DNA of 48,240 nt, taken from assembly GCA_905233835.1 (NCBI GenBank), contig CAJOGB010000001.1:1-48240 (forward strand), written 5' to 3'. Below the pieces are notes generated by a model, which worked only from the letters and a program-made list of their open reading frames with translations, made no database searches and was not told where the DNA came from. The stretch is from an uncultured Lachnospiraceae bacterium. GTDB lineage: Bacteria > Bacillota > Clostridia > Lachnospirales > Lachnospiraceae. How positions within the stretch are numbered: position 1 is the stretch's first letter; the number at the start of each line of letters is the position of its first letter. Shown here in pieces: positions 11,468-35,585 of this stretch. Made by a program: the position numbers and the translations under genes.

Positions 11468-12440
11468 CTACATTTCAGGTTTTAAGGCACGATTCATCAG
11501 TTCAAAAACCGCTTCTTTGGGATCTTTTTTCTCAAACAAAACTTCGTTTACACCACGGATGATGGGAAGATCCACATGATACTTTTCACCAAGTCCTAAG
11601 GCCGCCTTTGCGGAATAGGCGCCTTCCACCACCATCTGCACCTTTTTATAAGCTTCTTCGGGAGCAAAGCCCTGTCCGATATAATAGCCCGCCTTTCGGT
11701 TTCTGGAATGCTGTGACTGGCAGGTTACGATTAAATCGCCGACCCCGGTCAGACCTCCTAAGGTTTCCGGTTTTCCTCCCATGGCAAGAGCCAGTTTTTC
11801 CATCTCGCGAATGCCTCGGGTAATAAGTGCCGCCTTTGCGTTATCTCCGTATCCCAGTCCGTCGGACATGCCGGCAGCCAAAGCCATTACGTTTTTTAAA
11901 GAGGCACCGATTTCAATTCCAAGTACGTCATCACTGGTATACACACGGAAGTTTTCATTGGAAAAAATCTGTTGTGCTTCCACCGCAAAAGCTTCATCCT
12001 TTGCTCCAACCACTATGAGTGTTGGAAGTCCGATGACCACTTCCTCCGCATGGGACGGTCCGCGCATCAGGAAGTTCTTCTTCCACGATTTTTGTTTGGG
12101 TGAGATAAGATTCATCCTCGATTCCCTTGGAGACGGTAATGATTTTTTGTCCCGCCGGGATAAAGGGTTTTAACTTTTGGGCCGTTTCCCGTTCCGCCAC
12201 GGAAGGAACCGCCAAAACCAGCAAATCCTTTCCCTCGGCGGTTTCCTTTAAATCGGTACTAAACTTTAAGTCCTCCGGAAGTTTTGCGTTTGGAAGCTTA
12301 TCGTTTACCCCCGTTTTTTTCATCTCTTCCACTTGAGACGCACGGTGAGACCAAAGGGTTACATCATGTCCGTTTTTGCAAAGCAAGGAAGCTAGGGCAC
12401 TGCCCCAACTTCCCGCTCCGATCACTCCGATTTTTTTCAT
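11468..12440 (-). pseudogene. gpsA: NAD(P)H-dependent glycerol-3-phosphate dehydrogenase, reading frame broken at about 12059-12071
   Basis: The N-terminal ORF (11994..12440) reads MKKIGVIGAGSWGSALA...IVEEELPDA. The C-terminal ORF (11468..12115), in another frame, reads ...RGPSHAEEV...GDLIVTC...VVEGAY. Only 7 nt separate the EELP codons from the GPSHAEEV codons. Confidence 0.8.
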
Positions 12441-21742: not shown

Positions 21743-21946
21743 AAAAACTCCCGAAAATCTAATGTTTTCACGTACTTCATAAGTATAAATTTTTTGCGTC
21801 GGAAAATCAAGAAAGTCGCCGAATTCCCTACAGATTATCCTAAAGATTTTTCAAAAATTTCCGAAAAGTAATATGTAGAATATGTGGTGAAACGGAATTC
21901 CCAATATTTTTGCACGGAGGCACGAATATACGAGGATTCTTTTTTC

Positions 21947-24934
21947 ATGCAAATTAACGAGTTAAAAAATATGATGCTTGCAAATGCAGGCACTCCCAAT
22001 TCCATAAATACCTCCGTTTCCGGAGCCACCGGGTCTGAGAATATCAAAGATCACACAAAGACCGAGGGACTTCGAAACATTTCCGTAAAAAATCCTTTTT
22101 ACAACAAAGATGAATTAGGTGAAAAAACTTCTGCCGAATCTTTATCCGAGATTGAAGGTGCGGGCTTGTCCGCAAAGGAAGTAAAAGAACAAATGGTGCT
22201 TTCTTCCGAAAACATGACGGACACCGAGTACGGCAAGTTAAAGGAAGACGGCCACGATCCCATGGATATGGATCGTAAAGATTTTGTGACCATTGCAGAT
22301 AAAATCCGTGTGCAGCTGGCAAAAGGCGGCATGGATGTTTCCATCACCGGTGGTGTCTCTGACAAAGCGGTGGAAGCTTTGGGTGGAGATGCTGTAAGTA
22401 GTGCGGCCATTGATAAAGCAGTGGACAATGCCGTGAAAAAGGCAGCAGAGTTAAATGAGTTATCCGAAGATAACATGCTTTATCTTGTAAAGAATAACTT
22501 AGAGCCAACCATTGAGGCTTTGTTTGCGGCGGAATATTCCCAGGGCGCGGAGGCAGTTCGTCTTGGACCGGGGGAAACCATTGATTTTTCCAAACCGGAA
22601 ATGGCAGCCCTTTTGGAACAGGTGACAAGTGTGATTACGGAAGCCGGATTTGAGGCGGATGATACACAGATTGCAAACGCTGTGCTTTTGTTGGAAAACG
22701 AGATTCCGGTGACAGAGGATTCCATCAGCTATTTTTATACATTACAAACAGAGTCCCTTCATCTTTCTGCAAAGGAAGTAACGGAAGCGATTCTTACTTC
22801 TTTGGAAGAGGGCAATATGCCGGAAGATGCTTATCTGATGGAAGGATTTTCCCTAAAAGATCAGGCAAAGGAAGTAAACGACTACTTTCAAAATACGCCT
22901 GCGGAGGAAATCGCATTTTTATCTACGACAGAAGATCAGGTGGTAGCACTTCGTCAGGTAAATGAGATTCGTCTTATGATGACCATGGAAGCAAATTATG
23001 CCCTTTTAAAACAGGGCATTACAATTGATACCACTGAATTGGAAGAGTTGATTGAGAATCTAAAAGCGCAGGAAGCTTCTGCGACAGTGGAAGATAAAGT
23101 TGCGGAAGTTCTTACGGTAAAAGAAGAAGTAAAGAGCTATCCTATCGATCTTTTAGGTGCATTCTCCACAATGGATGCAATTGAACATGCAACCATAACG
23201 GATTTAAAAGTTACAGGTGCAGCGTTGGCTGCAAAATATGAAGCTGCAGGCGAGCGCTATGAAATCATGGGTACCGAGGTTCGTCGGGACTTGGGTGACT
23301 CCATTAAAAAAGCTTTCCGAAACGTGGATGATATCCTTTACGATTTGGGCATGGAAGTTTCCGAAGAAAACGAAAAAGCCGTTCGCATTTTAGGTTATAA
23401 CAGCTTAGAAATTACTGTGGAATCCGTTTCTACCATGCGCTACGCCAACGAGCTTGTAACTTCTACCTTTAAGGCGCTGACCCCGAAGGTGGTTACGGAA
23501 ATGATTAAAGAAGGCTTTTCTCCTCTTGATTCTTCTTTAAAAGAATTACAGGAAAAGGCCAAAGAAATTATAGCAAATATGAAAGACTCTTCAGGAGAGT
23601 TTTCCAACCATAATAAAGAGGATAACTTCGCTGAATTTTTGTGGAAACTGGAGCGCCAAAACGGCATCACAGAAGAACAGCGTCAAAGCTTTATCGGCGT
23701 CTATCGTTTGCTTCATCAGGTGGAAGCCACAGACGGCGCAGTGATTGGACAGCTTATAAATCAGGGTGCGGATCTTACCCTTCGAAACATGATGGGTGCG
23801 GTAAAAACCAGAAAGCATGAAAACCGCGACTATACCATTGACGATGATTTCGGCGGAATGGACAATACCACTTCTTCACTTTCCATTTTACAGCAGATCG
23901 AAGCCGCATTTATGACTTCTCGTGTCAGTGATGCCCGCATGGAGATTTCCGCATCTAAGATGATGCAGTTTGAAAACGAAGATTCCTATATGAATATGAA
24001 TCCGGATCAGTTTGCATCCGCGTTGGAATCCATGGATAAAGACGAGGCATTGGAAAAAGCTTTTGCGCAGGAAGAAATTTCCCGCATGCAAACTGCCGTA
24101 AATTCCGAAGAAAAAATCTATCAGATGTTAAAACAAATGGATATTCCTCAGACCCCGGCTTATTTGGAAGCCTGGGCGCAGTATATGCAAAATCGTAACC
24201 AGACCTTTAAGAATCTGGCAAGGCACTTAGGCGGGGATCGAGACGTCTTTTCCGAAATCGGAAGTGAGCTTGATTTTTCCGATATCGACGGACTTTTACA
24301 GACCACTATGGCTGATATTATCGAGGCCATGGGAGAAGCTTCCAAAACTCCGGAAGAAATGGCGGAAGCTCAGGAAAAATTGGCGGAAACCGCAGAAAAT
24401 GTCATGCGAAATATGTTGGTGGAAAAAGATGCAACTTCTATCGATGTTCGCGGCATGCGTATTACCGTTACCCAGCTTCAGATGCTTGGAAAACAGGCGC
24501 GTAAAACCGAGCAGTATGCGGTTCCCATTATGGTGGCGGACGAATACGGAAATATGTCACTAAAAATTGTTCGCGGAAAAGAAGAAGACAAAGGACAGGT
24601 GGATATTTTATTTGATATGGAATCCACCGGTGCGGTATCCGCGAAATTTAAATTTGAAGGAAATTCCCTTGACGGAAGCATCACCACTTCCTTACAGGCA
24701 ACGAGAGAACTTTTGTCTTCTCATATGGCTAATTTTGCGGCAGCAATGCAAAAAGCAGCAGATCTTCCGGTGGCATTAAGCTTCGGTTGGGAAAATAATT
24801 TGGATACGGATGCCGCTTTCGAAAACGACAAATACGACTTTGAAACCACCACGGAAAAACGTGAAATTCAGACAAGCAAGTTGTATGGAATCGCTCGAGC
24901 ATTTATCCAAACTTTAGGTGAAATTGCATCTTAA
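21947..24934 (+). CDS. Large acidic hypothetical protein with a FliK-like (hook-length control) C-terminal region
   Basis: The ORF is open from 21884. I prefer the ATG at 21947 (MQINELKN), which has GAGGA 11 nt upstream. It has no TM segment and is highly acidic. The C-terminal segment MSLKIVRGKEEDKGQVDILFDMESTGAVSAKFKFEGNSLDGSITTSLQATRELL resembles the Flg_hook/FliK C-terminal pattern. It sits directly upstream of flagellin. Confidence 0.6.
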   Translation: MQINELKNMMLANAGTPNSINTSVSGATGSENIKDHTKTEGLRNISVKNPFYNKDELGEKTSAESLSEIEGAGLSAKEVKEQMVLSSENMTDTEYGKLKEDGHDPMDMDRKDFVTIADKIRVQLAKGGMDVSITGGVSDKAVEALGGDAVSSAAIDKAVDNAVKKAAELNELSEDNMLYLVKNNLEPTIEALFAAEYSQGAEAVRLGPGETIDFSKPEMAALLEQVTSVITEAGFEADDTQIANAVLLLENEIPVTEDSISYFYTLQTESLHLSAKEVTEAILTSLEEGNMPEDAYLMEGFSLKDQAKEVNDYFQNTPAEEIAFLSTTEDQVVALRQVNEIRLMMTMEANYALLKQGITIDTTELEELIENLKAQEASATVEDKVAEVLTVKEEVKSYPIDLLGAFSTMDAIEHATITDLKVTGAALAAKYEAAGERYEIMGTEVRRDLGDSIKKAFRNVDDILYDLGMEVSEENEKAVRILGYNSLEITVESVSTMRYANELVTSTFKALTPKVVTEMIKEGFSPLDSSLKELQEKAKEIIANMKDSSGEFSNHNKEDNFAEFLWKLERQNGITEEQRQSFIGVYRLLHQVEATDGAVIGQLINQGADLTLRNMMGAVKTRKHENRDYTIDDDFGGMDNTTSSLSILQQIEAAFMTSRVSDARMEISASKMMQFENEDSYMNMNPDQFASALESMDKDEALEKAFAQEEISRMQTAVNSEEKIYQMLKQMDIPQTPAYLEAWAQYMQNRNQTFKNLARHLGGDRDVFSEIGSELDFSDIDGLLQTTMADIIEAMGEASKTPEEMAEAQEKLAETAENVMRNMLVEKDATSIDVRGMRITVTQLQMLGKQARKTEQYAVPIMVADEYGNMSLKIVRGKEEDKGQVDILFDMESTGAVSAKFKFEGNSLDGSITTSLQATRELLSSHMANFAAAMQKAADLPVALSFGWENNLDTDAAFENDKYDFETTTEKREIQTSKLYGIARAFIQTLGEIAS

Positions 24935-24957
24935 TTTTTCGGACAAAAATCCGATAA
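24931..24957 (+). promoter_or_regulatory. Candidate sigma-28 (SigD/FliA-type) promoter of the flagellin gene
   Basis: TAAT at 24932-24935 and CCGATAA at 24951-24957, with a 14-15 nt spacer. Compare the B. subtilis SigD consensus TAAA-N15-GCCGATAT (from memory). Confidence 0.5.
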
Positions 24958-24984
24958 AAATATTGTAAGACAAGGATTGTCATT

Positions 24985-25004
24985 TGAATGCATGGAAGCA
25001 TTTG
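24985..25004 (+). promoter_or_regulatory. 5'-UTR hairpin presenting GGA in its loop (CsrA-site-like)
   Basis: The stem is GAATGC/GCATTT (plus a possible U-G) with loop AUGGAA. Further AAGGA motifs lie at 24972-24976 and at the SD (25044-25048). Confidence 0.3.
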
Positions 25005-25055
25005 TTATTTTCGTGTATTCAATTGGCAATTTTTTTATGCAGAAAGGACTAGAAA

Positions 25056-26393
25056 ATGAAGGTTAATAATAATATTTCCGCAGTCATTACAAATAATCAG
25101 CTTCTTCGTACCGAAGATTCCTTGGCCGCTTCCATGGAGCGCCTTTCCTCAGGACTTAAAATCAACCACGCAAAGGATAATCCATCCGGCATGGCCATTT
25201 CCAATAAGATGCAGGCACAGATCAATGGACTTGATCAGGCTTCCAGAAACTCATCTGACGGAACGAGCGTTTTGGAAACCGCAGACGGAGCGTTAAACGA
25301 AGTTACCGCCATGCTTCAGCGTATGAGAGAGTTAGCGGTTCAGGCTGCCAACGATACCAACTCTCAGTCAGAAAAAGAAGCCATCCAGGTGGAAATTGAT
25401 AAGTTAAAAGAAGAGGTGGATCGTATTTCTTCCACCACAGAATTTAATACAAAGTCACTTTTAGACGGATCTTTGGATAACCGTGTATATGCAGACAACG
25501 TAAGCCGCATTCAGATTTCCGAAGACGTAGTTGCCGGTGAATATCATTTTGAGGTAACCCAGGCCGCTACTCAGGCAAAACAGTCCATCACATTACCAAC
25601 ATCCATTGCAGAAAGCGGTGTTCTTACCGTTAACGGATACGGCATTTATCTTGAAAAAGGAATGACCGAAGACGAAATCAAAGAAGCGGTTCGTGCAGGT
25701 GCGGAAATCGCGGAAGCGGAATTATCCCCGGACGGAACCACTCTTTCTTCCAAGGCATACGGTGCTGACGCAAAAATGGAAGTTAGCGTTGATTCCACTC
25801 TTTCTCCTTTCGGAATCGGAACCTACGAAGCACCGAAGGATGCAGAGATTACCATTGATAGCACATCCGCATTTACCGGAACAGCCACCGTTGTAACGGA
25901 AGGAAATAAACTTACTTTTACGGATGTAAAGGGATTTGAAATGTCCATGGTTTTGGAGGCAGGAGTAACCGGTGATTTTAATCTTAACGTAACCGACATG
26001 GGACCCATGGTATTACAGATTGGTGCCAACGAAGGTCAGCAGATGAGCGTTAAAATTCCAGCCTGCGATACAAAAAGCTTATATATCGATGCGGTAGATG
26101 TTACCACAGTTTTGGGTGCACAGCGTGCCATTTCTCAGTGTGATGATGCCATCGCATCCGTAAACAAAGTTCGTTCTTCTCTCGGTGCTTACACCAACCG
26201 TTTGGAATCCGCTACCAAGAGTTTGGATGAAACTTCCGAAAACATGAACTCAGCAATCTCTCGTATCTCCGATGTGGATATGGCCATTGAAATGACAGAG
26301 TACACAAGACTTAACGTACTTACCCAGGCTGCCACATCCGCTTTGTCTCAGGCAAACGAGTTACCGCAGATGGCATTACAGTTATTAGGATAA
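25056..26393 (+). CDS. fliC: Flagellin
   Basis: The conserved N-terminal D0/D1 reads MKVNNNISAV...RLSSGLKINHAKDNPSGMAIS...LQRMRELAVQAAN. The C-terminus reads ...SRISDVDMAIEMTEYTRLNVLTQAATSALSQANELPQMALQLLG. The middle is variable. Confidence 0.95.
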   Translation: MKVNNNISAVITNNQLLRTEDSLAASMERLSSGLKINHAKDNPSGMAISNKMQAQINGLDQASRNSSDGTSVLETADGALNEVTAMLQRMRELAVQAANDTNSQSEKEAIQVEIDKLKEEVDRISSTTEFNTKSLLDGSLDNRVYADNVSRIQISEDVVAGEYHFEVTQAATQAKQSITLPTSIAESGVLTVNGYGIYLEKGMTEDEIKEAVRAGAEIAEAELSPDGTTLSSKAYGADAKMEVSVDSTLSPFGIGTYEAPKDAEITIDSTSAFTGTATVVTEGNKLTFTDVKGFEMSMVLEAGVTGDFNLNVTDMGPMVLQIGANEGQQMSVKIPACDTKSLYIDAVDVTTVLGAQRAISQCDDAIASVNKVRSSLGAYTNRLESATKSLDETSENMNSAISRISDVDMAIEMTEYTRLNVLTQAATSALSQANELPQMALQLLG

Positions 26394-26409
26394 TCTTTAA
26401 GGAGATCCC

Positions 26410-26904
26410 ATGACAAAAGATCAGATTTCTTCTTTTCAAATAAGAATCACTCAAAGTAATAAGACGGAGTTAATTGTTACTTTATATGAAATTTATTTTG
26501 CTTATATCAATGATTGCCTTAGCGTGTTGTCTAAATTAACAGAAAAAAAAGAAAAAGCGGACTTGGACGAGTACGCAAAATCTCTTCGCATGGCCTCCCA
26601 GGTGGTACGACATTTGGAAGATGATTTAAATTTTTCCTATGAAATTTCAGGAAGTCTGTTCGGACTTTATCACTTCGTGGAAGGACGACTGGCCAAAGCA
26701 AGTTACTCACTTTCAAAAGAAGATTTAGAAGATACCTTAAAGGTGATGAAGCCTTTATACGAAAGCTTTAAAGAGGTGGCCACACAGGATGACTCCAAAC
26801 CTTTGATGCAGCACACCCAAAAAATTTCCGCAGGATACACCTACGGAAGAAATGATGTAAACGAATCTGTTGGCTCAGAAAGTAACAGAGGATTTTTTGC
26901 ATAG
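26410..26904 (+). CDS. fliS: Flagellar export chaperone FliS-like protein
   Basis: 164 aa, immediately after flagellin, with GGAG upstream. ITQSNKTELIVTLYEIYFAYINDCL resembles the FliS N-terminal helix pattern (..sp.eLi.mLYeg..). Confidence 0.6.
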   Translation: MTKDQISSFQIRITQSNKTELIVTLYEIYFAYINDCLSVLSKLTEKKEKADLDEYAKSLRMASQVVRHLEDDLNFSYEISGSLFGLYHFVEGRLAKASYSLSKEDLEDTLKVMKPLYESFKEVATQDDSKPLMQHTQKISAGYTYGRNDVNESVGSESNRGFFA

Positions 26905-26921
26905 TTAACACACAAAGTATT

Positions 26922-26952
26922 ACAACGACAGTTTTGCTGTCGTTGTTTTTTT
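26922..26952 (+). terminator. Rho-independent terminator after fliS
   Basis: ACAACGACAG-TTTTG-CTGTCGTTGT followed by TTTTTT. Confidence 0.85.
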
Positions 26953-27024
26953 GTTCAATAGTTACAATTTTTAATTTCATTATTTTCACCAAAGTTACAA
27001 AAATTATTTTTTTTTAAAAAATCT

Positions 27025-27054
27025 CTTGAAAAACTTTTGTCAGCGATTTTATAA
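27025..27054 (+). promoter_or_regulatory. Candidate sigma-A promoter of the Tad operon
   Basis: TTGAAA (27025-27030), an 18-nt spacer, then TATAAT (27049-27054), about 60 nt upstream of the first Tad ORF. A direct repeat AGTTACAA occurs at about 26959 and 26991. Confidence 0.5.
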
Positions 27055-27115
27055 TTAGCGCATTCACACAAATTCTTTTTTTCCCCTCAAACAACAGAAT
27101 AACGAAGGAGGCAAT

Positions 27116-28111
27116 ATGAGAGCTATCTCGATTGTTATCTGCGATACGGATTCCGCATTCGTACAGTCTTTAAGCTGGTTCCTTTGCGGGCAAATGAAAA
27201 ATATTTCCGTAGTTGCATTTACGCAGATGAATTCCTTTTTAAACAGCAGCGGTCACTATCACCTCGGTCTGTTTGGAAAAGAATTCTTGCAGGTATACGA
27301 GGAGCAAAATCCGGATCTTTGTATAGACGACATCTATTATTTGTCTTCTACCCTTGGCGAAGGATTTGGTTCTTACAATGTTTTCTACAAGTATCAAAAC
27401 ATGAGATGCTTACTGGAAATCATTGCCCAAAAACACCTTGAGGAAAAAATGGGCTGTAACGAATCGGAAAAGCCGAAAGTCTACGGCATTTATTCTCCGA
27501 TTCAACACGATCTAAGAGTTCCGTTTAGTCTTACATTTTCACATTTACTTTCACAAAAAAAGGAAACTCTATTTCTGGATTTAGAACCATTTAGTGTTCT
27601 ACCCGGTTTAATCCCTAACGACAGATTTGATACGGATTTCATGGATATTATGTATCTGTTGAAATCACAAAAAAATGACTTTGATTTAAAAAAATACATT
27701 TTTTATTTTGAAGATATCGCCATGCTACCCGTGGCAAAAAATCCATTCGATTTTGCTGCAGCGGACGAAGATGCATGGGATTTGCTTATTGAAAAAATAT
27801 TAAAACTGCGGTTTCAACTGGTGGTGTTATTTGACCGCCTCGATTCCGTATCCAAATGCTTCTATCCCATTATGGATGAACTCATCCTTTTGGGACGACC
27901 GGAAGATTACTACCGCTACAGCCAAGAATGCTGTCGTGAATATTTAAATGAATCGGATTTGGAGTTTTCTCTCCATTCCGTTGATTTAAACATGTCGGCA
28001 ACCGGATTAAAGGAAGGGTCTTTCGGTATGAAAAAAATTATCGAAGGAAATATGGCAGGGTTTATACAAAATGAATTTAAAGGAACGTTTGCGTCTGCAG
28101 GTATTAAATAA
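27116..28111 (+). CDS. TadZ/CpaE-like protein with pseudo-receiver N-domain and degenerate P-loop
   Basis: 331 aa with AAGGAGG upstream. The N-terminus ISIVICDTDSAF is receiver-like, but I see no Asp at the expected phospho-acceptor position. Where CpaE/MinD proteins have GGVGKT, it reads VYGIYSPIQHDLRVPFSLTFSHLL. It sits first in the operon, ahead of cpaF. Confidence 0.55.
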   Translation: MRAISIVICDTDSAFVQSLSWFLCGQMKNISVVAFTQMNSFLNSSGHYHLGLFGKEFLQVYEEQNPDLCIDDIYYLSSTLGEGFGSYNVFYKYQNMRCLLEIIAQKHLEEKMGCNESEKPKVYGIYSPIQHDLRVPFSLTFSHLLSQKKETLFLDLEPFSVLPGLIPNDRFDTDFMDIMYLLKSQKNDFDLKKYIFYFEDIAMLPVAKNPFDFAAADEDAWDLLIEKILKLRFQLVVLFDRLDSVSKCFYPIMDELILLGRPEDYYRYSQECCREYLNESDLEFSLHSVDLNMSATGLKEGSFGMKKIIEGNMAGFIQNEFKGTFASAGIK

Positions 28112-29291
28112 AATCGACGTCACCCGAGAATTGGAAGACAATGAAATCCGGGATTTAATCCGAGAAGAAATCCTTCTTTTGGGTCAGGAAAAAATGATCA
28201 CATTGGAACAAAAGCTTCGCTTAGAACAGGAAGTATTTAACTCCATACGAAAGTTTGATGTACTCCAGGATTTGCTCGATGACGATTCAATTTCGGAAAT
28301 TATGATTAATGGATGGCGGGATATCTACATCGAAAAGAACGGTCATATCACAAAAAGCAATTATATGTTTTCATCGGAAGAAAAACTCTACGACGTGATA
28401 CAACAAATCGTTTCCATGAACAATCGTATGGTAAATGAGAGTTCTCCGATTGTAGATACAAAACTGCCGGACGGCTCCAGAGTAAATGTAATTCTTTCTC
28501 CCGTTTCCATCGACCACAGCACGGTAACCATTCGTAAGTTTCCAAAAGAGCGAATCACCATGAAGACATTGATTGAAAAATCTTCTTTGTCCCAAGAAGT
28601 CGCCGACTTTTTGGAAAAGTTGGTAGTAAGCGGATACAACATTTTTATTTCCGGGCCGACTTCCAGCGGAAAAACCACGTTCTTAAATGCGTTAACGGAT
28701 TATATTCCAAAAACGGAACGAGTTGTAACCATCGAAGACTCCGCAGAACTGCAGATAAGTGGAATCGACAACCTGGTACGATTGGAATCCCGAAATGCCA
28801 CATTGGAAGGGAAACTGGAAATCCGTATTCGTGACCTGGTAAAAGCTGCCCTTCGTATCCGTCCGGATCGAATTATCGTCGGGGAATGTCGTGGTGCGGA
28901 AGCTCTTGATATGCTTCAGGCACTAAATACAGGACATGACGGCACCTTATCAACGGGTCACGGCAATTCCTCCATTGATATGATTTCAAGATTGGAAACC
29001 ATGGTTTTAATGGCGGATGACGTGGATCTTCCCATTACCGCCATCGACAAACAAATTGCTTCCGGCGTAGACATTTTTATTCATCTTTCAAGAATCAATA
29101 AAAGCCAACGTAAACTCATGGAAGTAAACGAAGTCATCGGATACGAAAACGGTGAAGTGAAATTACAAAAACTGTTTCAATACGAAAACAAAGAAGGAAA
29201 GGATGTATGGAAACGAGTCGGAACATTAAAGCACACGCAAAAATTAGAAGCATATTTCACAGAGAACTATACGGATACAAAGCCGACATAA
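28071..29291 (+). CDS. cpaF: CpaF/TadA-family type IV pilus (Tad) secretion ATPase
   Basis: Walker A is GPTSSGKTTFLNAL, the Asp box is VTIEDSAEL, Walker B is RIIVGECRGAEA and the His box is GHDGTLSTGHGNS. Confidence 0.9.
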   Translation: MNLKERLRLQVLNKIDVTRELEDNEIRDLIREEILLLGQEKMITLEQKLRLEQEVFNSIRKFDVLQDLLDDDSISEIMINGWRDIYIEKNGHITKSNYMFSSEEKLYDVIQQIVSMNNRMVNESSPIVDTKLPDGSRVNVILSPVSIDHSTVTIRKFPKERITMKTLIEKSSLSQEVADFLEKLVVSGYNIFISGPTSSGKTTFLNALTDYIPKTERVVTIEDSAELQISGIDNLVRLESRNATLEGKLEIRIRDLVKAALRIRPDRIIVGECRGAEALDMLQALNTGHDGTLSTGHGNSSIDMISRLETMVLMADDVDLPITAIDKQIASGVDIFIHLSRINKSQRKLMEVNEVIGYENGEVKLQKLFQYENKEGKDVWKRVGTLKHTQKLEAYFTENYTDTKPT

Positions 29292-30004
29292 AAGATTACG
29301 GCATCATCCTTTTGGGAAGCCTCTTGCTGTCCGGTCTGCTCGCTTTTTTATTCTACAACTCCGTATACGGTATGGTTCTTTTTCTTCCTGTTTTTCTGTG
29401 CGTCTACCTTTTCTATTTTTATCAAATTCAAAAGAAGCGCTTGGAAAAAATTAAAACGGAATTTCGCGAAATCTTGATGACGGTTGCAAACGGTTTGTCT
29501 GCAGGCAGTTCAGTGGAACGATCTTTTGGCGAAGCAGAGGACAATTTAAAAACCCTTTACAAAAACGACTGTATTTTGCAAAAGAATCTTCACGTGATGA
29601 ATCAGAAGGTCCGGATGGGAACAGCCATAGAGAAAGAATTTTATGCCTTTTCTTCACGGAGTAAAGTGGAAGAAATCGAAACCTTCGGAGAGCTGTTTTT
29701 ATACGCAAAACGCATGGGCGGAGATTATATCAAAAACATTCGCAGATTGGCTGTTCGTATGGATGAAAGAATTGCCACAAAAGAAGAACTGGAAAGTTTG
29801 TTGGCGGAAAAAATGCTGGAGCTTCGGATTATGTCTGTGGTTCCCATCGGAATCATGTTGTATCTACGTTTATCTGCCGCATCGTTTTTGGTTCCACTCT
29901 ATCAAAACGTGGGCGGTGCCTTGGTCATGACCGGTTGTTTTTTGTTATATGTCGGATCGGTACTGTTGGGGGTTGTTATCATTCGAAATACCTTGGAGGT
30001 TTAG
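29207..30004 (+). CDS. tadB: TadB-like type II secretion system F-family membrane protein
   Basis: 265 aa. It has an N-terminal TM, a cytoplasmic helical domain (EFREILMTVANGLSAGSSVERSF) and C-terminal TMs. The start is uncertain because it overlaps cpaF by 85 nt. Confidence 0.7.
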   Translation: METSRNIKAHAKIRSIFHRELYGYKADIKDYGIILLGSLLLSGLLAFLFYNSVYGMVLFLPVFLCVYLFYFYQIQKKRLEKIKTEFREILMTVANGLSAGSSVERSFGEAEDNLKTLYKNDCILQKNLHVMNQKVRMGTAIEKEFYAFSSRSKVEEIETFGELFLYAKRMGGDYIKNIRRLAVRMDERIATKEELESLLAEKMLELRIMSVVPIGIMLYLRLSAASFLVPLYQNVGGALVMTGCFLLYVGSVLLGVVIIRNTLEV

Positions 30005-31204
30005 ATGACGGAAAAGAAAATCAAACTGCTTGTAATTGGAATGGTTTTATTTGGATTGATTTTACAGGGATATTATGCCTTGGAAAGTATGTCATCCGTT
30101 ACCGCCATTAAGCGCCCCGAGGTTGGTGAAGATGCAAAGGATATCACATTGATAATGAAAGGAGAAGATGTATATGAGGAGGTTACGTTTACGGTGGACG
30201 AACAGCTGCCGTCAAAAGAAGCCATAGACCGGTATCTGGATTTGGCAAAACAGGAAATCGAAGAAAGCTTTTTGGGGGAAAACCGCTCTTTTGATGAAAT
30301 CAGAAAAAACGTGGTTTTAAAAGACAGTTATGCTAACGGAATGGTAGATGCAAGATGGAGTTTTTCTCCTCGAAAAATCATTACAAGTGAGGGAAAAATA
30401 GAATTTGATGAACTGGAGGAAGACACCCCCATCGTTTGTACGGCGATTCTGAATGCATTCGACAAGGAGCTTAGTTATTCCTTTCCTGTATGTGTAAAAG
30501 TTCCAAACGCTAACGAAAAAGATGGTTTTTTGTATTACATCAAAAAGGTATTAAAAGAAAAAAATAAAGAGGGAAAAGAAGAATTCGTATTACCGACTGA
30601 TCTATACGGGAAATCCATCACTTGGAACCAAAAAATTCCTTATACGGGATTTGAAATCAGTCTCTTAGGTTTGTTTATGGGAATCCTTTTAATCTTTGGA
30701 AATAAATATGATTCAAAGAAAGAGGTGAAAAATAAATTAGATATGTTTGAACAGTTCTATCCGGAGATTATCAGTGGTCTTACCCTATATATGGAGGCAG
30801 GTTTATCTTCCAGGCAAGCTTTCGAAAAAATGGGGGAAATATATCAAAAGCAACGGAACAAAACCGGCATAAAAAAAGAACCCTATGAGAATATTCTGAT
30901 TTTAAATCGGGAACTTCATGACGGAAAAAACACACGAAACGCATATGAGGATTTTGGAAGACGATGCTTGCATCCGGCTTACAAAAAAATGATGTTGCTA
31001 TTCGAGCAAAACATGCGCAAGGGGAACGAATATCTCCTGGAGCAATTGGAAAGAGAAGAAAAAAATGTTTACGAAACCAGACTGAGAAAAATTAAAAGTG
31101 CGGGCGAAACAGCATCCACCAAACTATTAATTCCAATGGGCGGATTGCTTGGCATGGTATTGATTGTTTTGGTGGTCCCCGCCTTTTTTACCATTCAAAT
31201 ATAG
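30005..31204 (+). CDS. tadC: TadC-like T2SS-F-family membrane protein with an extra ~200-aa N-terminal extracytoplasmic domain
   Basis: 399 aa. TM1 is LLVIGMVLFGLIL, followed by a soluble domain, a TM, a T2SSF-like segment (YPEIISGLTLYMEAGLSSRQAFEKMGE) and a C-terminal TM. Confidence 0.7.
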   Translation: MTEKKIKLLVIGMVLFGLILQGYYALESMSSVTAIKRPEVGEDAKDITLIMKGEDVYEEVTFTVDEQLPSKEAIDRYLDLAKQEIEESFLGENRSFDEIRKNVVLKDSYANGMVDARWSFSPRKIITSEGKIEFDELEEDTPIVCTAILNAFDKELSYSFPVCVKVPNANEKDGFLYYIKKVLKEKNKEGKEEFVLPTDLYGKSITWNQKIPYTGFEISLLGLFMGILLIFGNKYDSKKEVKNKLDMFEQFYPEIISGLTLYMEAGLSSRQAFEKMGEIYQKQRNKTGIKKEPYENILILNRELHDGKNTRNAYEDFGRRCLHPAYKKMMLLFEQNMRKGNEYLLEQLEREEKNVYETRLRKIKSAGETASTKLLIPMGGLLGMVLIVLVVPAFFTIQI

Positions 31205-31215
31205 GAGGAAATCAA

Positions 31216-31398
31216 ATGTTAAATTTTTGGAAATTTAAATGGAGCCAATACATGTGCTATGAAGACGGCATTGGTGTTGTGGAAATGATTTTATTATTGG
31301 TTGTAATTATTTCTTTGGTTTTAATCTTTAAAGAAAATATCACGGATTTGGTAAATGATATCTTTGAAACCATTGAAAAAAACGCTGCAAAAGTATGA
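31216..31398 (+). CDS. flp: Flp-family type IVb/IVc prepilin
   Basis: 60 aa with AGGAGGA 6 nt upstream. The leader is MLNFWKFKWSQYMCYEDG, then IGVVEMILLLVVIISLVLIF. This fits G/xxxxE cleavage with Glu at +5, followed by a hydrophobic helix and a short polar tail. Confidence 0.8.
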   Translation: MLNFWKFKWSQYMCYEDGIGVVEMILLLVVIISLVLIFKENITDLVNDIFETIEKNAAKV

Positions 31399-32891
31399 AA
31401 GAAGGAAGCGTAACCGTTTTTCTGGGCTTGTGTCTTTCCATGATTATGAGTCTGTTTTTTTCCATGACGGAAGTGACGCGATACTTTGCGCTTACACAGG
31501 AAAGTAAATCCCTGTTTTACTCTGCGACTCAATCCGCCTTTGGAGAATACAACCGTCCACTATGGGAAAACTACGGAATTCTGGCTATCGACACCGACTA
31601 TTGCAAAGCTTACAAAGAAGACGGTGTCTGCGATGCAGTCCGTTACTATCTTTCAGACGGCTATCAAGCTAAAAATATAATACAGGAAGCTTCCGTAGAT
31701 TTTTTAAAACTGTATACGGAGGATGTATCAAAAGACAGCTGCATCTATTTAACCGATGAAGCAGGCGCGGCATTGATAAAAGAAGCTGCCCGTTGCATGG
31801 AAGGTGAACTGGCCTCTTCCGTTATTTCGGAAATTCAAAAAAACTGTGAAAATATTTCCGAAGACAGCAAAAACGAAGTGGATTTGTCCACCATATTGGA
31901 AAATGCCTCTGAGTCCCTGGATCAAACACAAGTTGAGCAGCCCCCGGAGGAAAATGAAGAAGCCTCATCCGATGAAGGCAAACCAAAACAAAAGACGCCG
32001 GAAGGAAATGACGATGCAAAAAATCTGATTCAGGCAACTCGAGAATTTATCGCCACCGGTGTATTGGCACAGGTTATTTCTGTAGACTCAATTTCGGAAA
32101 CGGTCTATACCACACCGTCACCGGTATCGGAGCGACCTCTAAATACCGGAGACGGAAGTCCCGGCTCCGTCAATGCCTTTGAACGTGCTTTGTTCCAGTA
32201 CTATTTAACAAAACACTTTTCAAATTACACAAACCATGCGCACGAAGGTGGCATGAGCTATGAATTAGAGTATATTCTTTGCGGGAAAAAATCCGATCGA
32301 GAAAACTTAGCCGGCACCGTGGAGCGACTTTTGGCAATCCGGGAAGTAGAGAATCTGATATCTTTGCACCAGGATCCAAATAAAGTTGCCGAAGCAAAAG
32401 CCTTGGCCGCCACGGCGACAGCCGTATGCCTGCATCCCGAACTGGAAGAAATCGTAAGCTACGGTATCATGATTGCTTGGGCTTATCTGGAGAGCGTTTT
32501 GGATGTACGACTCTTACTCTCCGGTGGGAAAGTATCCTTTATCAAAACGCCCGGAGAATGGACCTCGCAACTGGCAGCTTTGCCTACTTATTTCAACACA
32601 TCCGTAAAAGCAAACGAGTGTGCTTCCGGCATCAATTATGAGCAATATCTGCTTGGACTTTTTACCGTAGAACGTCAGGAAAAACTGACCTATCGCTCTA
32701 TGGATTTGATGGAAGAAACACTCCATCAAATTGAGCACTACGAAAATGTTTGCATGGATCATATGCTGGTAGAAACATGTTTTTACGGGGATTTAAAGGG
32801 AAACAGCCTGTTTTTAAACTTTGTTCCATTATATGAATCGGATGAATCCGGATACGACTTTTCATACGAGCGCACCGTTTCGTACTTGTAG
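31395..32891 (+). CDS. Large pseudopilin-like/Tad-associated protein (TadE-like hydrophobic N-terminus, acidic linker, globular C-domain)
   Basis: 498 aa with an ATGA overlap onto flp. The N-terminus is MKEGSVTVFLGLCLSMIMSLFF (G-S-x-T-V then a TM). An acidic low-complexity stretch reads QVEQPPEENEEASSDEGKPKQKTPEGNDD. Confidence 0.6.
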   Translation: MKEGSVTVFLGLCLSMIMSLFFSMTEVTRYFALTQESKSLFYSATQSAFGEYNRPLWENYGILAIDTDYCKAYKEDGVCDAVRYYLSDGYQAKNIIQEASVDFLKLYTEDVSKDSCIYLTDEAGAALIKEAARCMEGELASSVISEIQKNCENISEDSKNEVDLSTILENASESLDQTQVEQPPEENEEASSDEGKPKQKTPEGNDDAKNLIQATREFIATGVLAQVISVDSISETVYTTPSPVSERPLNTGDGSPGSVNAFERALFQYYLTKHFSNYTNHAHEGGMSYELEYILCGKKSDRENLAGTVERLLAIREVENLISLHQDPNKVAEAKALAATATAVCLHPELEEIVSYGIMIAWAYLESVLDVRLLLSGGKVSFIKTPGEWTSQLAALPTYFNTSVKANECASGINYEQYLLGLFTVERQEKLTYRSMDLMEETLHQIEHYENVCMDHMLVETCFYGDLKGNSLFLNFVPLYESDESGYDFSYERTVSYL

Positions 32892-32902
32892 GAGGGAGAT
32901 GT

Positions 32903-33751
32903 GTGGGGGTGTCTCTAAACAAGAATCATCTATATTCGAATTATAAAAATAAAAATGACGGTCTCTTCTTGCGGGATAGAATGAAAGCTATAAGAAAGAG
33001 ACGCCCTTACCCATTTTCTTCCTACGAGACCGGAAGTTATACCATTGAAGCTGCAGTATTGTTGCCTATGTTTTTGGTCTTTGGCATGTTGGTTTTATTC
33101 TGCATGAAAACGGTGTATACCCAATGGAAAGTCTCTACGGTTTTGGATCAAATTGTGGACACCACTGCTTTATACGGAGAAAACCCGGGGGATGCTGTAT
33201 TGTACGGAGCCTTTTATACCTTGGCGGCCAAGGAAAAAGTCCCGACGGAAGATATCCTGGGCGGAATTGCCGGTATAACGCTTTTTCAGTCATCCTCAGA
33301 TGACTTGCGCATCGCCCTGTCCGCCGACTATATCATTACCTACCCCATTTCCCTACTTGGAAAACAGGGTTTTTACGTATCCCAAACACGAACAGCGCGC
33401 ATTTGGAACGGTTACGACCCAACACAAAACACCTCGGAAGAGGGAAGCATTGCATTTGTAACAAAATACGGGACTGTCTACCACTTGAGTCTCTCCTGTC
33501 CTCACATCGATTTAAGCATTCGAAGCATTTCAAAAGAGCAGCTTTCCGATGCCAAAAACTTATCCGGAGGTAAGTATAAAAAATGCCCGATGTGCGGGAA
33601 AAAAAGTGATGTTTATTATGTAACGGCCTGGGGGGATTGTTATCATAGCAGTCTATCCTGTTCCGGATTAAAGCGAACAATTTACCGCATCCCACTTGAG
33701 GACGCAAAAGCATCGTACAATCCCTGTTCAAAATGTGCGGCAGGTCAATAA
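32903..33751 (+). CDS. TadE-like pseudopilin with C-terminal tandem YH-x4-C...C-x2-C modules
   Basis: GTG start with GGAGGGAG upstream (alternative ATG at 32981). The N-terminal YETGSYTIEAAVLLPMFLVFGMLVLF matches the TadE pattern. The C-terminus carries two about 45-aa His/Cys modules. Confidence 0.65.
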   Translation: MGVSLNKNHLYSNYKNKNDGLFLRDRMKAIRKRRPYPFSSYETGSYTIEAAVLLPMFLVFGMLVLFCMKTVYTQWKVSTVLDQIVDTTALYGENPGDAVLYGAFYTLAAKEKVPTEDILGGIAGITLFQSSSDDLRIALSADYIITYPISLLGKQGFYVSQTRTARIWNGYDPTQNTSEEGSIAFVTKYGTVYHLSLSCPHIDLSIRSISKEQLSDAKNLSGGKYKKCPMCGKKSDVYYVTAWGDCYHSSLSCSGLKRTIYRIPLEDAKASYNPCSKCAAGQ

Positions 33752-33765
33752 ACGGAGAAGAAAAA

Positions 33766-34197
33766 ATGGAAATTGGATGTTTAATGGGGGCTTTATCCCT
33801 ACTTTCACTGGAAGATTTAAGAATCAAAAAAATACCGATTGTGCCGTTGCTTTTAACCGGTATTGTCGGAATGATTCTTCACTTAATCTATGGAAATCGA
33901 GAAATAACGGATATCCTTGGGGGACTTTCCATCGGTTTTATACTGTATGCAATCTGCCTGATTACGAAAGGGAAAATTGGAAAAGGCGACTGCTATTTGT
34001 ATATGGTTACCGGCGTTTATTTGGGGTTCTGGAATAACCTTCTTCTGCTTTGGCTTTCTTCCGTTTTAGCCGGCGTAGTCGGTATTTCCGTTATGTTGCT
34101 GAAAAAAAAGAATCGCGATTACAAACTTCCTTTTGTACCGTTTACTTTTATTGCGGCACTTTTGATGCTTCTGGCGGGAGGAGGGAAGTTTGCATGA
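33766..34197 (+). CDS. A24-family prepilin peptidase (TadV/CpaA-like, no methyltransferase domain)
   Basis: Polytopic, about 143 aa. The first Asp context is LEDLRIKKIP and the second is GKGDCYLY (GxGD). I prefer the ATG at 33766, with GGAG 8 nt upstream, over the ORF-track start at 33733. Confidence 0.75.
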   Translation: MEIGCLMGALSLLSLEDLRIKKIPIVPLLLTGIVGMILHLIYGNREITDILGGLSIGFILYAICLITKGKIGKGDCYLYMVTGVYLGFWNNLLLLWLSSVLAGVVGISVMLLKKKNRDYKLPFVPFTFIAALLMLLAGGGKFA

Positions 34198-34418
34198 AAG
34201 AATCCCGATACTATCTCGACGGAAGTTACACCGTAGAAGCTACTGCGATATTCGGAATCACCATCGGTATCATCTTTCTTATGATTGCACTTGGATTTCG
34301 AGTTTATCACACATATTGCTCCGACATTTGTGCTTATGAGATCTCGGATGATAACCCAACTGATAAATTCCGCCTGATTACCTACGGAAAAGAATTATTG
34401 GAGGAGGTATTTGAATAA
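34194..34418 (+). CDS. Small TadE-like pseudopilin
   Basis: 74 aa from an internal ATG with an ATGA overlap onto the peptidase stop and GGAGGAGGGAAG upstream. It reads MKESRYYLDGSYTVEATAIFGITIGIIFLMIALGF. Confidence 0.6.
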   Translation: MKESRYYLDGSYTVEATAIFGITIGIIFLMIALGFRVYHTYCSDICAYEISDDNPTDKFRLITYGKELLEEVFE

Positions 34419-35557
34419 TGAATGTCAGTTACAAACGGACATCAAATAAAAACTATATGATTATTGAAGGAGAAGATTGTCCCTTGGGATTTGAAACCTC
34501 TATGTTTTTAGAAAACAAACCGGCTTCTCTTTTAGAATCGCATACCATGGAAATCAATGGTTATATTCAATATTGGTATGACATTACCGGGAAAAAATCT
34601 TTACGGGATTTCTTCGATCAGGAAGGTATCACAAAGGAGAATCTTAAGAGTGCATTTTTCGGTATTCAAAAATCACTTTTGTCTTTAGCGGAATACCTAA
34701 TCGGAGAAGATCATCTGTATTTAACTGTGGACACCATCTTTTTTGATCAAAAAACCCACGGAGGGATTTATCTTTGTTTTTGTCCACTTTCCCTTCCGCC
34801 TCATACCGATCAACTTCAATCGATTGCGCAGCATCTTATAACCACAGTCGACCATCATAATCCTGAGGCCACAAAGCTATGCTACGATATGTATGGAATC
34901 ACGGAACAAAACCGATTTTCATTATCGGATTTTATCGGGGTCTTGGACGAAGACTGCGCCAACATATTTGAATCCCGCGAACCTTCTTACGAACCCGGCG
35001 TTCCGAAAGAAATCACGGAAGAAGACATTCGTCAGGTTGCAGATGATATCGGAGAAGATTGCTTTACGGAAGAATCCGATACACATAACTCATTCTTTAG
35101 ACTTATCAAACACCGCTTTACAGAGTGGAAAGAAAAGTTATCTTCCAAAAGAGAAGAATTATTTCCGGAAGACGAATACTTAAAAGACATTGAATTTGAC
35201 GAAGTAATCCCCCGCGAGGAACCGGATACCCAAACGGTTTTACTCGCCGAAAATCCTTCCGCCTGTTGCGGAAAACTGATTCACGACACGGGGGATTTCC
35301 CGAATGACTTTTATATTTCCCATACTCCTTTTCGCATCGGATCAAAAAGCGGCGGAAATGACGCTGTCATAAACTCTCCTGCCGTAAGTCGTTATCACGC
35401 GAAGATTATTCGAAAAGACGGTGTTTATTATCTTATAGATTTAAACAGTACCAACGGAACCTTTTTAAACGGAAAAATATTAAACTACAACGAGTCGGTT
35501 CCGTTAAAATCCATGGATACCATATCCTTTGCGGATGTAATGTATCACATCATATAA
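34418..35557 (+). CDS. FHA-domain protein with a large uncharacterised N-terminal domain
   Basis: 379 aa with a TAATG overlap onto the upstream gene. The C-terminal FHA signature is FRIGSKSGGNDAVINSPAVSRYHAKIIRKDGVYYLIDLNSTNGTFLNGK. Confidence 0.8.
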   Translation: MNVSYKRTSNKNYMIIEGEDCPLGFETSMFLENKPASLLESHTMEINGYIQYWYDITGKKSLRDFFDQEGITKENLKSAFFGIQKSLLSLAEYLIGEDHLYLTVDTIFFDQKTHGGIYLCFCPLSLPPHTDQLQSIAQHLITTVDHHNPEATKLCYDMYGITEQNRFSLSDFIGVLDEDCANIFESREPSYEPGVPKEITEEDIRQVADDIGEDCFTEESDTHNSFFRLIKHRFTEWKEKLSSKREELFPEDEYLKDIEFDEVIPREEPDTQTVLLAENPSACCGKLIHDTGDFPNDFYISHTPFRIGSKSGGNDAVINSPAVSRYHAKIIRKDGVYYLIDLNSTNGTFLNGKILNYNESVPLKSMDTISFADVMYHII

Positions 35558-35583
35558 AAAAGAGACGGCCGTTGCCGTCCCTG
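35556..35583. terminator. Hairpin between the convergent FHA gene and recR (better terminator for recR)
   Basis: AGAGACGGC-CGTT-GCCGTCCCT (one mismatch). On the minus strand it is followed by TTTTTT. On the plus strand it is followed only by GATTTAT. Confidence 0.6.
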
Positions 35584-35585
35584 AT

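Follow-up and report, generated by a model that had tools for sequence, protein, structure and literature searches.

What surface structure is encoded by ten genes that lie on one strand between a flagellin-fliS pair and recR in an uncultured Lachnospiraceae bacterium, and is it an oddity of that genome? The genes occupy positions 27116-35557 of a stretch of 48,240 nucleotides (the window; GenBank assembly GCA_905233835.1, contig CAJOGB010000001.1, positions 1 to 48,240). An earlier interpretation by a model, made without database searches and called here the sequence-only reading, had proposed a monoderm-type Tad/Flp pilus operon with non-canonical accessory genes, and searches with profile hidden Markov models (HMM), comparison with PDB sequences and comparison between genomes agree on this. 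Translation of the window recovered all ten co-directional, tightly packed open reading frames (ORFs) on the plus strand where they had been placed, and they are named O1 to O10 in their order (Table 1). The DUF5702 profile, to which O6 belongs, has relatives in 357 species-representative genomes, and the locus comparisons described below used the best 80 of these 357 (L001-L080). Taken together, homology and gene order make it probable that these genes specify a working machine for a type IVc (Tad/Flp) pilus, a Lachnospiraceae-specific variant for a single-membrane envelope.

The core of this machine can be assigned by homology. It is predicted to comprise a CpaF-type hexameric ATPase (O2), a TadB/TadC platform (O3/O4), a TadV-type aspartyl peptidase (O8) and a TadZ-like protein (O1), together with three substrates that carry class-III signal peptides with the G/xxxxE motif, namely the major pilin O5 and the TadE-family minor pilins O7 and O9. 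The Pfam models expected from the sequence-only reading matched O2 (T2SSE), O3 (T2SSF), O8 (Peptidase_A24) and O10 (FHA). For T2SSF in O4 and TadE in O7 and O9 the expectation was borne out through orthologs, but the window copies fall below the cut-offs, and the pilin belongs to another family than the one foreseen.

Among structures, O2 is closest to Caulobacter CpaF (302 bits, 4e-89), followed by archaeal GspE2 (139 bits), FlaI (133) and VirB11 (114), with PilT at 139 bits or less. Its sequence shows the Walker A motif GPTSSGKT, the Asp box, Walker B and the His box. The FlaI model scores 215 bits against a cut-off of 550, which places the locus outside the archaeal Epd-like pili and archaella, and the platform is split over two genes, unlike the fused FlaJ-type platform. 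The window copy of O4 reaches 22.3 bits with T2SSF (1.3e-4; cut-off 25.2), and 16 of 18 orthologs match this model (best 8e-9). Residues ~80-170 of O4 correspond to aBig_2 in 5 of the 18 (best 2e-9). Cleavage of O5 is predicted at ...YEDG/IGVVEM, leaving a mature pilin of 42 aa. The motif EEDG/IGVVE[MVL]ILILVVLIGLVLIFK and the hydrophobic stretch are conserved in ~70 loci, with mature lengths of 42-44 aa. Both catalytic Asp motifs are found in O8, the Asp in LEDL and GKGD.

Gene 1, which had been left without a name, can now be described as TadZ-like. The window copy of O1 itself has no Pfam match. A profile built from 24 orthologs finds TadZ of Eubacterium rectale (3fkq) among PDB sequences at 9e-22 over both domains and ParA (3ea0) at 3e-5, and TadZ-like_ARD is matched by 13 of the 24 orthologs. 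We considered 3fkq as an ortholog of O1 and rejected it. Its sequence shares no more than 20-25% identity with orthologs of O1, including those from Agathobacter loci, and thus comes from a paralogous Tad locus.

Domain searches of window ORFs of at least 120 aa found no secretin, RcpC/CpaB, TadD/CpaD or vWA domain, in agreement with the earlier statement that secretin, RcpC, TadD and vWA-TadG are absent. The lack of secretin, RcpC and TadD is expected of the monoderm form, which does not need them. In its predicted protein set the machine is a monoderm Tad/type IVc system, with three caveats that are weighed below: a Flp1_like pilin, the absence of Tyr6, and a TadZ-like protein lacking the P-loop.

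Table 1. Features of the tad operon and its borders (positions are those of the window).
Feature	Position	Strand	Description	Support
Terminator	26922-26946	+	Intrinsic terminator 3' of fliS; upstream operon boundary	11-bp stem, then T-run
Promoter	27026-27055	+	Sigma-70-type, TTGAAA-N18-TATAAT	11/12 positions match; best match in region
O1	27116-28111	+	TadZ-like protein: atypical receiver domain (ARD) and ParA/MinD-like domain without P-loop	
O2	28071-29291	+	CpaF/TadA-type secretion ATPase	T2SSE 5e-55
O3	29207-30004	+	TadB-like platform protein; start maybe 29324	T2SSF 1.6e-6, 28.5 bits (cut-off 25.2)
O4	30005-31204	+	TadC-like platform protein with N-terminal extracytoplasmic Ig-like (aBig_2) domain	
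O5	31216-31398	+	Flp1-like prepilin, 60 aa	Flp1_like 2e-20, 72 bits
O6	31395-32891	+	DUF5702 protein, 498 aa; giant pilin-like protein without Glu5	DUF5702 2e-77
O7	32903-33751	+	TadE-like pseudopilin (G/SYTIEAAV), 282 aa, with two C-terminal His-Cys3 modules	
O8	33733-34197	+	TadV-type A24 prepilin peptidase without methyltransferase domain, 143-154 aa	Peptidase_A24 3e-9
O9	34194-34418	+	Mini pseudopilin (LDG/SYTVEA), 74 aa; shortened TadE-family protein	
O10	34418-35557	+	Cytoplasmic DUF6382-linker-FHA protein, 379 aa	DUF6382 3e-38, FHA 2e-18
Hairpin	35561-35582		Common to the convergent tad and recR transcripts	Folding energy; U-tract on recR (-) strand only

The ten ORFs are intact in the window and in a separate, 99%-identical contig (L081). 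Upstream, the terminator behind fliS folds with -15.2 kcal/mol (z = -4.9), and its T-run is kept in relatives. The promoter that had been proposed downstream of it, TTGAAA-N18-TATAAT, was confirmed. It is followed by a ribosome-binding site (RBS) 6 nt ahead of the O1 start codon (AAGGAGG-N6-ATG). When the window was aligned with five related species, the intergenic region was 58% identical overall, and TTGAA, TATAAT, AGGAGG and ATG were invariant in all six. The raw count of promoter-like matches in the region does not exceed that of shuffled sequence, so the call is credible because the -35 element, -10 element and RBS are conserved, and not because of the match count.

Translational coupling had been suggested from the packing of the genes. 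The overlaps ATGA at 31395 and 34194 and TAATG at 34418 were recovered exactly, and O1 and O2 do overlap at 28071-28111, but for O2 and O3 the overlap at 29207-29291 depends on the start codon: ATG 29207 has a strong RBS, and the gene caller took TTG 29324 in L081. For O8 the likelier start is 33766, which has an RBS (the L081 gene call is 143 aa), and therefore O7 and O8 do not overlap. The hairpin at which the operon had been said to end is real. Its fold is -14.8 kcal/mol on the plus strand (z = -5.4) and -18.0 kcal/mol, with a U-tract, on the minus strand, and because of this stronger fold and the U-tract it is mainly the terminator of recR.

Behind flp the operon departs from the textbook tadE-tadF arrangement, as had been recognized, though the departure is no peculiarity of the window genome. 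The first of these genes, O6, was modelled with AlphaFold2 (AF2) at a mean predicted local distance difference test score (pLDDT) of 79.8 and a predicted template modelling score (pTM) of 0.71. The model shows a long N-terminal helix (residues 3-49) and a three-stranded sheet (106-118, 457-469 and 487-496), together with a large inserted helical region and an acidic loop that is disordered. Foldseek searches with it returned nothing significant, the best E-values being 0.29 in PDB and 1.2 in BFVD. The N-terminus, (G/A)-S-x-T-V-(F/Y), is like the G/SYTVE of O7 and O9, but an aromatic residue always replaces Glu5. By analogy with the logic of GspK, and from the topology of the model, O6 may be a tip, terminal or priming subunit.

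O7 and O9 bear G/SYT[VIL]EA class-III signal peptides. The window copy of O7 matches TadE at 0.016, below the Pfam cut-off of 22.9 bits; three of six orthologs tested match the family, one of them above the cut-off at 23.4 bits. The C-terminus of O7 consists of two copies of the module G-x2-Y-H-x4-C...C-x2-C, whose residues H194, C199, C228, C231 and H248, C253, C275, C278 are 96-100% conserved in 78 orthologs. An exhaustive search for this His-Cys3 module gave 2,041 representative clusters, 1,222 of them at E <= 1e-10, mostly proteins of the size of O7. A few longer proteins of 750-1567 aa (P0249, P0264, P0285 and P0305) carry between 8 and 21 tandem copies of the module. Neither for the Cys-rich tail of O7 nor for these tandem-copy proteins was a Pfam family found. 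Zinc binding by the modules is a plausible guess. The 'mini pseudopilin' O9 shows the expected motif, G/SYTVEA, which is conserved at this position across many loci. Its window copy is under the TadE cut-off; orthologs of 150-193 aa in the distant relatives L082 and L083 score 32.6 and 33.8 bits, and O9 is better described as a shortened member of the TadE family.

The last gene product, O10, is a candidate regulator or scaffold. In its AF2 model, DUF6382 (residues 1-176) has a pLDDT >90, residues 180-277 are disordered, and the FHA domain spans residues 286-379. The latter resembles the FHA structures of DgcB, EmbR and GarA in Foldseek. With the full model, only FHA matches and none for DUF6382 were among the Foldseek matches listed, and a profile of DUF6382 only found no match among PDB sequences. 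As a guess, DUF6382 might be a pseudokinase resembling EssB. Within the FHA domain S324, H327 and N346-G347 do not vary, and 25 of 27 sequences have R325.

How widely is this set of genes distributed? The best 80 loci are all from Lachnospiraceae or unclassified Clostridia, and the carriers include Roseburia faecis and R. hominis, both of them cultured, as well as Agathobacter, Pseudobutyrivibrio ruminis, Lachnobacterium bovis and Shuttleworthella satelles. Wherever the flank is long enough, the order O1-O10 is unchanged in essentially all loci. Even DUF6382-FHA homologs that are ~27% identical (in Anaerocolumna and another lineage) lead to the same operon, with O10 in the same position. Judged from this conservation, the accessory genes are a fixed Lachnospiraceae module and are not peculiar to the window genome, whose operon is one ordinary member of a family-wide system. 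DUF5702, DUF6382 and Flp1_like were already catalogued in Pfam.

Two further genes join the operon in many species. A second Peptidase_A24 gene lies 5' of O1 in 51 of 64 loci (for example L035:5096-5629, in R. faecis JCM 17581, and L010:5263-5691, in P. ruminis), and a rhomboid protease gene follows O10 in 40 of 66 (L035:14403-15050, L033:14270-15295 and L006:14315-15394; with or without an N-terminal extension of ~140 aa). Both are absent from the window and its closest relatives. Most species thus carry two prepilin peptidase genes per operon and the window clade only the embedded one. In an Anaerocolumna-like locus (L082:12241-17117), genes for a Peptidase_C39_2-like protein, a LytTR response regulator, a histidine kinase and an AgrB-type protein stand between the FHA gene and rhomboid-SCP2. 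This agr-like quorum-sensing cassette may be a regulatory link in that lineage.

The fixed place of an FHA protein in the operon also bears on a different function, that of a contact-dependent killing or secretion device (Kil-like, or a piston in the style of the type II secretion system, T2SS) whose assembly would be triggered on contact by FHA signalling. The Kil system is rich in FHA proteins (PMC8460266), DUF6382-FHA is otherwise found in the antibacterial type VII secretion systems T7SSe/f, and Tad genes adjoin T7SSg/h (PMC11217815). The window and the conserved flanks, however, lack toxin, immunity, WXG100/LXG and EssC genes, the ATPase O2 is not fused to FHA, and the remaining gene content is that of a pilus, with one major and several minor pilins. 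We regard such a device as quite improbable.

The sequence-only reading described the operon as wedged between fliS and recR. This is true of the window, but it reflects a local inversion: elsewhere recR stands upstream of the operon and SCP2-HIT downstream. The window belongs to the core chromosome, with genes for ATP synthase, PGM, PFK, dnaX-ybaB-recR, HydEFG, aconitase and GlgB. In other genomes the order is dnaX-ybaB-recR-(yaaL/DUF2508-bofA)-fliK-like-fliC-fliS-(A24)-tad-(rhomboid)-SCP2-HIT, and by comparison between loci the order dnaX-ybaB-recR-...-fliS-tad-...-SCP2-HIT is the ancestral one. The window has HIT and SCP2 upstream and recR-ybaB-dnaX downstream, all on the minus strand, and therefore the block from the fliK-like gene to O10 (~21.8-35.6 kb) has been inverted. 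The GC skew is positive solely within this block (21800-35585). An identical O10/recR junction in L081, a separate metagenome contig, shows that the inversion is not an assembly artefact. Inverted repeats searched for at the breakpoints gave chance-level matches only.

Adjacency to recR, dnaX and ybaB might hint at a DNA-uptake (competence) pilus, and Tad-like pili of that kind are reported in other phyla (Micrococcus luteus, Liberibacter). The adjacency is, however, a by-product of conserved gene order and inversion, and comEA, comEC, dprA and other competence genes are absent from the window. The ComGA and ComGC models score 68 bits (cut-off 300) and 14.6 bits (cut-off 75), far under their cut-offs, which sets the locus apart from Com (ComG) competence pili. 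A role in DNA uptake is very improbable.

The site itself appears to be very old. In two non-flagellated relatives tad stands directly after DUF2508 (yaaL)-bofA (L083:1241-1830 and L084:1282-1871). The Bacillus arrangement is dnaX-yaaK-recR-yaaL-bofA, and because the yaaL-bofA neighbours echo it we take the chromosomal site of tad to be ancient. A horizontally acquired island was considered as well and rejected, given the conserved core-chromosome position throughout the family and only a slight dip in GC.

Could the pilus be coupled in function to the flagellum? Beside tad, at 21884-26904, the window carries a small flagellar trio: flagellin, FliS and a DUF6240 protein of 1016 aa whose Flg_hook domain is FliK-like. 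The fliK-like/fliC/fliS-tad group might be a functional unit, through a common polar site set by TadZ, through surface sensing, or as a switch between motile and sessile life. The synteny comparison between relatives gives this some ground: of the 63 loci whose upstream flank spans 7 kb or more, 56 have fliS immediately upstream and on the same strand, the block was inverted as a unit in the window genome, and L023 keeps fliC-fliS beside the operon in another arrangement. Against it, the operon has its own conserved promoter and is divided from fliS by a terminator, the search for a sigma-D flagellar promoter (TAAA-N15-CCGATA) found none within the window, and shared ancestry can explain the linkage, all loci being from one bacterial family. 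Since the complete operon occurs without flagellar genes in six or more lineages (Shuttleworthella L020, and L014, L017, L044, L083 and L084), a functional link is a minority hypothesis, and we consider it unlikely.

For the pilus machine we propose the following course of assembly. The operon would be transcribed from its own sigma-70-type promoter into one translationally coupled mRNA. O8 would cleave the prepilins at the membrane, and O6, O7 and O9 might form a priming or tip complex, with the helical domain of O6 and the His-Cys3 modules of O7, which probably bind zinc, shown at the tip as candidate adhesins. O2, docked on O3/O4, would polymerise Flp, and the resulting thin filament would cross the cell wall. 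O1, with its nucleotide-binding loop lost, may act as a nucleotide-independent localisation or docking factor. Through its FHA domain O10 could place the machine under regulation, the input being either phosphothreonine made by a kinase whose gene lies elsewhere or a scaffold contact independent of phosphorylation. In gut and rumen Lachnospiraceae the pilus would most likely serve adhesion and colonisation, on mucus, plant fibre or other cells.

Several observations weigh against this account or against parts of it. O5 matches Flp1_like (PF16982) and not the classical Flp_Fap, and of the G/XXXXEY motif it keeps Gly and Glu5, which are conserved, but has Met, Val or Leu in place of Tyr6. Neither DUF5702 nor DUF6382 could be linked by its fold to an established structure, and the roles of tip subunit and adaptor are drawn from topology and context. 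In the FHA domain of O10 the canonical GR arginine is never present (Ser, Lys or Thr stands instead), and domain searches found no kinase or phosphatase encoded in the window. The consistent replacement of this arginine makes phosphothreonine binding uncertain; from the remaining conserved residues it is possible, not assured. The terminator of the tad operon on the plus strand is weak. Finally, the Walker A position of O1 reads YSPxxHExQLPF in all 24 orthologs, and the nucleotide-binding loop is absent.

The lost P-loop of O1, the shortened O9 and the absence of the second peptidase and the rhomboid gene from the window clade might even suggest a decaying or non-functional remnant. The ten ORFs are, however, intact in two separate assemblies, motifs, promoter and gene order are conserved throughout the family, and the loss of the P-loop, being common to all the orthologs examined, is ancient and stable. 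That the operon is a remnant is hardly credible, and O1 is, by its sequence, an ancient TadZ-like protein without a nucleotide-binding loop.

The functional pilus machine remains our preferred reading, and the operon is a conserved, well-defined and widespread Lachnospiraceae variant of Tad, which would not greatly surprise a specialist. A wider proposal is tentative, and we give it rather low credence: the machine may be a distinct sub-type of type IV filament, with a tip of DUF5702 and an extracellular His-Cys3 pilin, gating by DUF6382-FHA in common with T7SSe/f, and maybe coordination with the flagellum. If this were true, DUF6382-FHA would be a regulatory plug-in common to two unrelated envelope machines of Bacillota, and the tip would be built on a fold not seen before (DUF5702).

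Roseburia, Agathobacter (Eubacterium) rectalis, Pseudobutyrivibrio and Lachnobacterium are abundant in the human gut and the rumen, where they produce butyrate and degrade fibre. Little is understood of how these bacteria attach to mucus, to fibre or to one another. One conserved pilus operon in hundreds of species is a testable candidate for a colonisation factor. The operon also gives a functional context to DUF5702, to DUF6382 and to the unnamed His-Cys3 module with its more than 1,200 sequence clusters, and O1 offers a natural example of a TadZ working without the nucleotide-binding loop.

Some other genes of the window deserve mention. On the minus strand, gpsA (glycerol-3-phosphate dehydrogenase, 11468-12440) is split into two overlapping ORFs in different frames; positions 11994-12440 encode the N-terminal domain and 11468-12115 the C-terminal one. 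Either a frameshift has turned gpsA into a pseudogene, or the split is a sequencing error. The same strand encodes two poorly characterised proteins, a DUF5711 protein of 381 aa (1166-2311) and one of 822 aa (4276-6744) that has no match beyond a weak one to TPR near its N-terminus.

Compared with the diderm Cpa system of Caulobacter and the Tad system of Aggregatibacter, the window operon has in common a CpaF-type ATPase, a TadB/TadC pair, a short G/xxxxE-cleaved Flp-like pilin, a TadV-type peptidase without methyltransferase domain, TadE/F-type minor pilins and a TadZ/CpaE-type protein. In contrast to them, it is without secretin (CpaC/RcpA), CpaB/RcpC, CpaD/TadD and a vWA-type TadG. O2 also lacks the N-terminal extension of ~90 residues seen in CpaF, since the alignment starts at CpaF residue 102.

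The E. rectale TadZ structure 3fkq, reportedly the work of Xu et al. in 2012, comes from the same bacterial family and resembles O1 in combining an ARD with a ParA/MinD-like domain. It retains the Gly-rich loop SPCGGVGTS where the O1 orthologs have their altered Walker A sequence. O6 can be set beside GspK and the minor-pilin tip subunits of T2SS and type IV pili, having a pilin-like N-terminal helix without Glu5 and a large helical domain inserted in a small beta-sheet core. This resemblance is a topological reading of the model, with no similarity in sequence or Foldseek.

The architecture of DUF6382 plus FHA is named in the literature only as TseJ/TsfJ of T7SSe/T7SSf (Garrett and Palmer, 2024; PMC11217815). 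Like O10, these are DUF6382-FHA proteins of Bacillota, predicted to be cytoplasmic and without assigned function (PMC11217815). O10, in contrast, is attached to a Tad-type machine, and EssC, the kinase and the PPM phosphatase are absent from the window. No EssC-type FtsK ATPase, WXG100 or YukD-like protein was found in the window or the conserved flanks, and the locus is not of the T7SSe/f type. FHA proteins also accompany the Tad-like Kil machine of Myxococcus xanthus, where they are suspected to gate assembly (PMC8460266). Kil differs in being diderm, with a secretin, an ATPase fused to FHA and two clusters, and in killing prey.

Tad systems in Clostridia have been detected computationally (PMC6668835). 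The sequence-only reading had called those of flagellated Clostridia and Lachnospiraceae-like bacteria essentially uncharacterised. In the literature we found no paper on this gene set, on DUF5702, or on Tad pili of Roseburia and Agathobacter beyond the TadZ structure, but that structure, from a paralogous locus, has been solved.

The nearest characterised counterpart is the Tad pilus of Bifidobacterium breve UCC2003, encoded by tadZ-tadA-tadB-tadC-flp-tadE-tadF with the peptidase elsewhere (PMC7822027). The likeness that had been claimed extends to the core order and not beyond it. Three extra conserved genes take the window operon past the seven-gene set: DUF5702 (498 aa), which follows flp and precedes the pseudopilins, an A24 peptidase inside the operon, and DUF6382-FHA at its end. 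It further differs in a pseudopilin with two His-Cys3 modules, a TadZ-like protein without P-loop, a TadC with an extracellular Ig-like domain, and a pilin of the Flp1_like and not the Flp_Fap family. Both belong to monoderm gut commensals, both are without secretin, RcpC and TadD, and both follow the core order of a TadZ-like protein, the ATPase, two platform proteins, Flp and pseudopilins; in B. breve, this pilus has a role in colonisation (PMC7822027).

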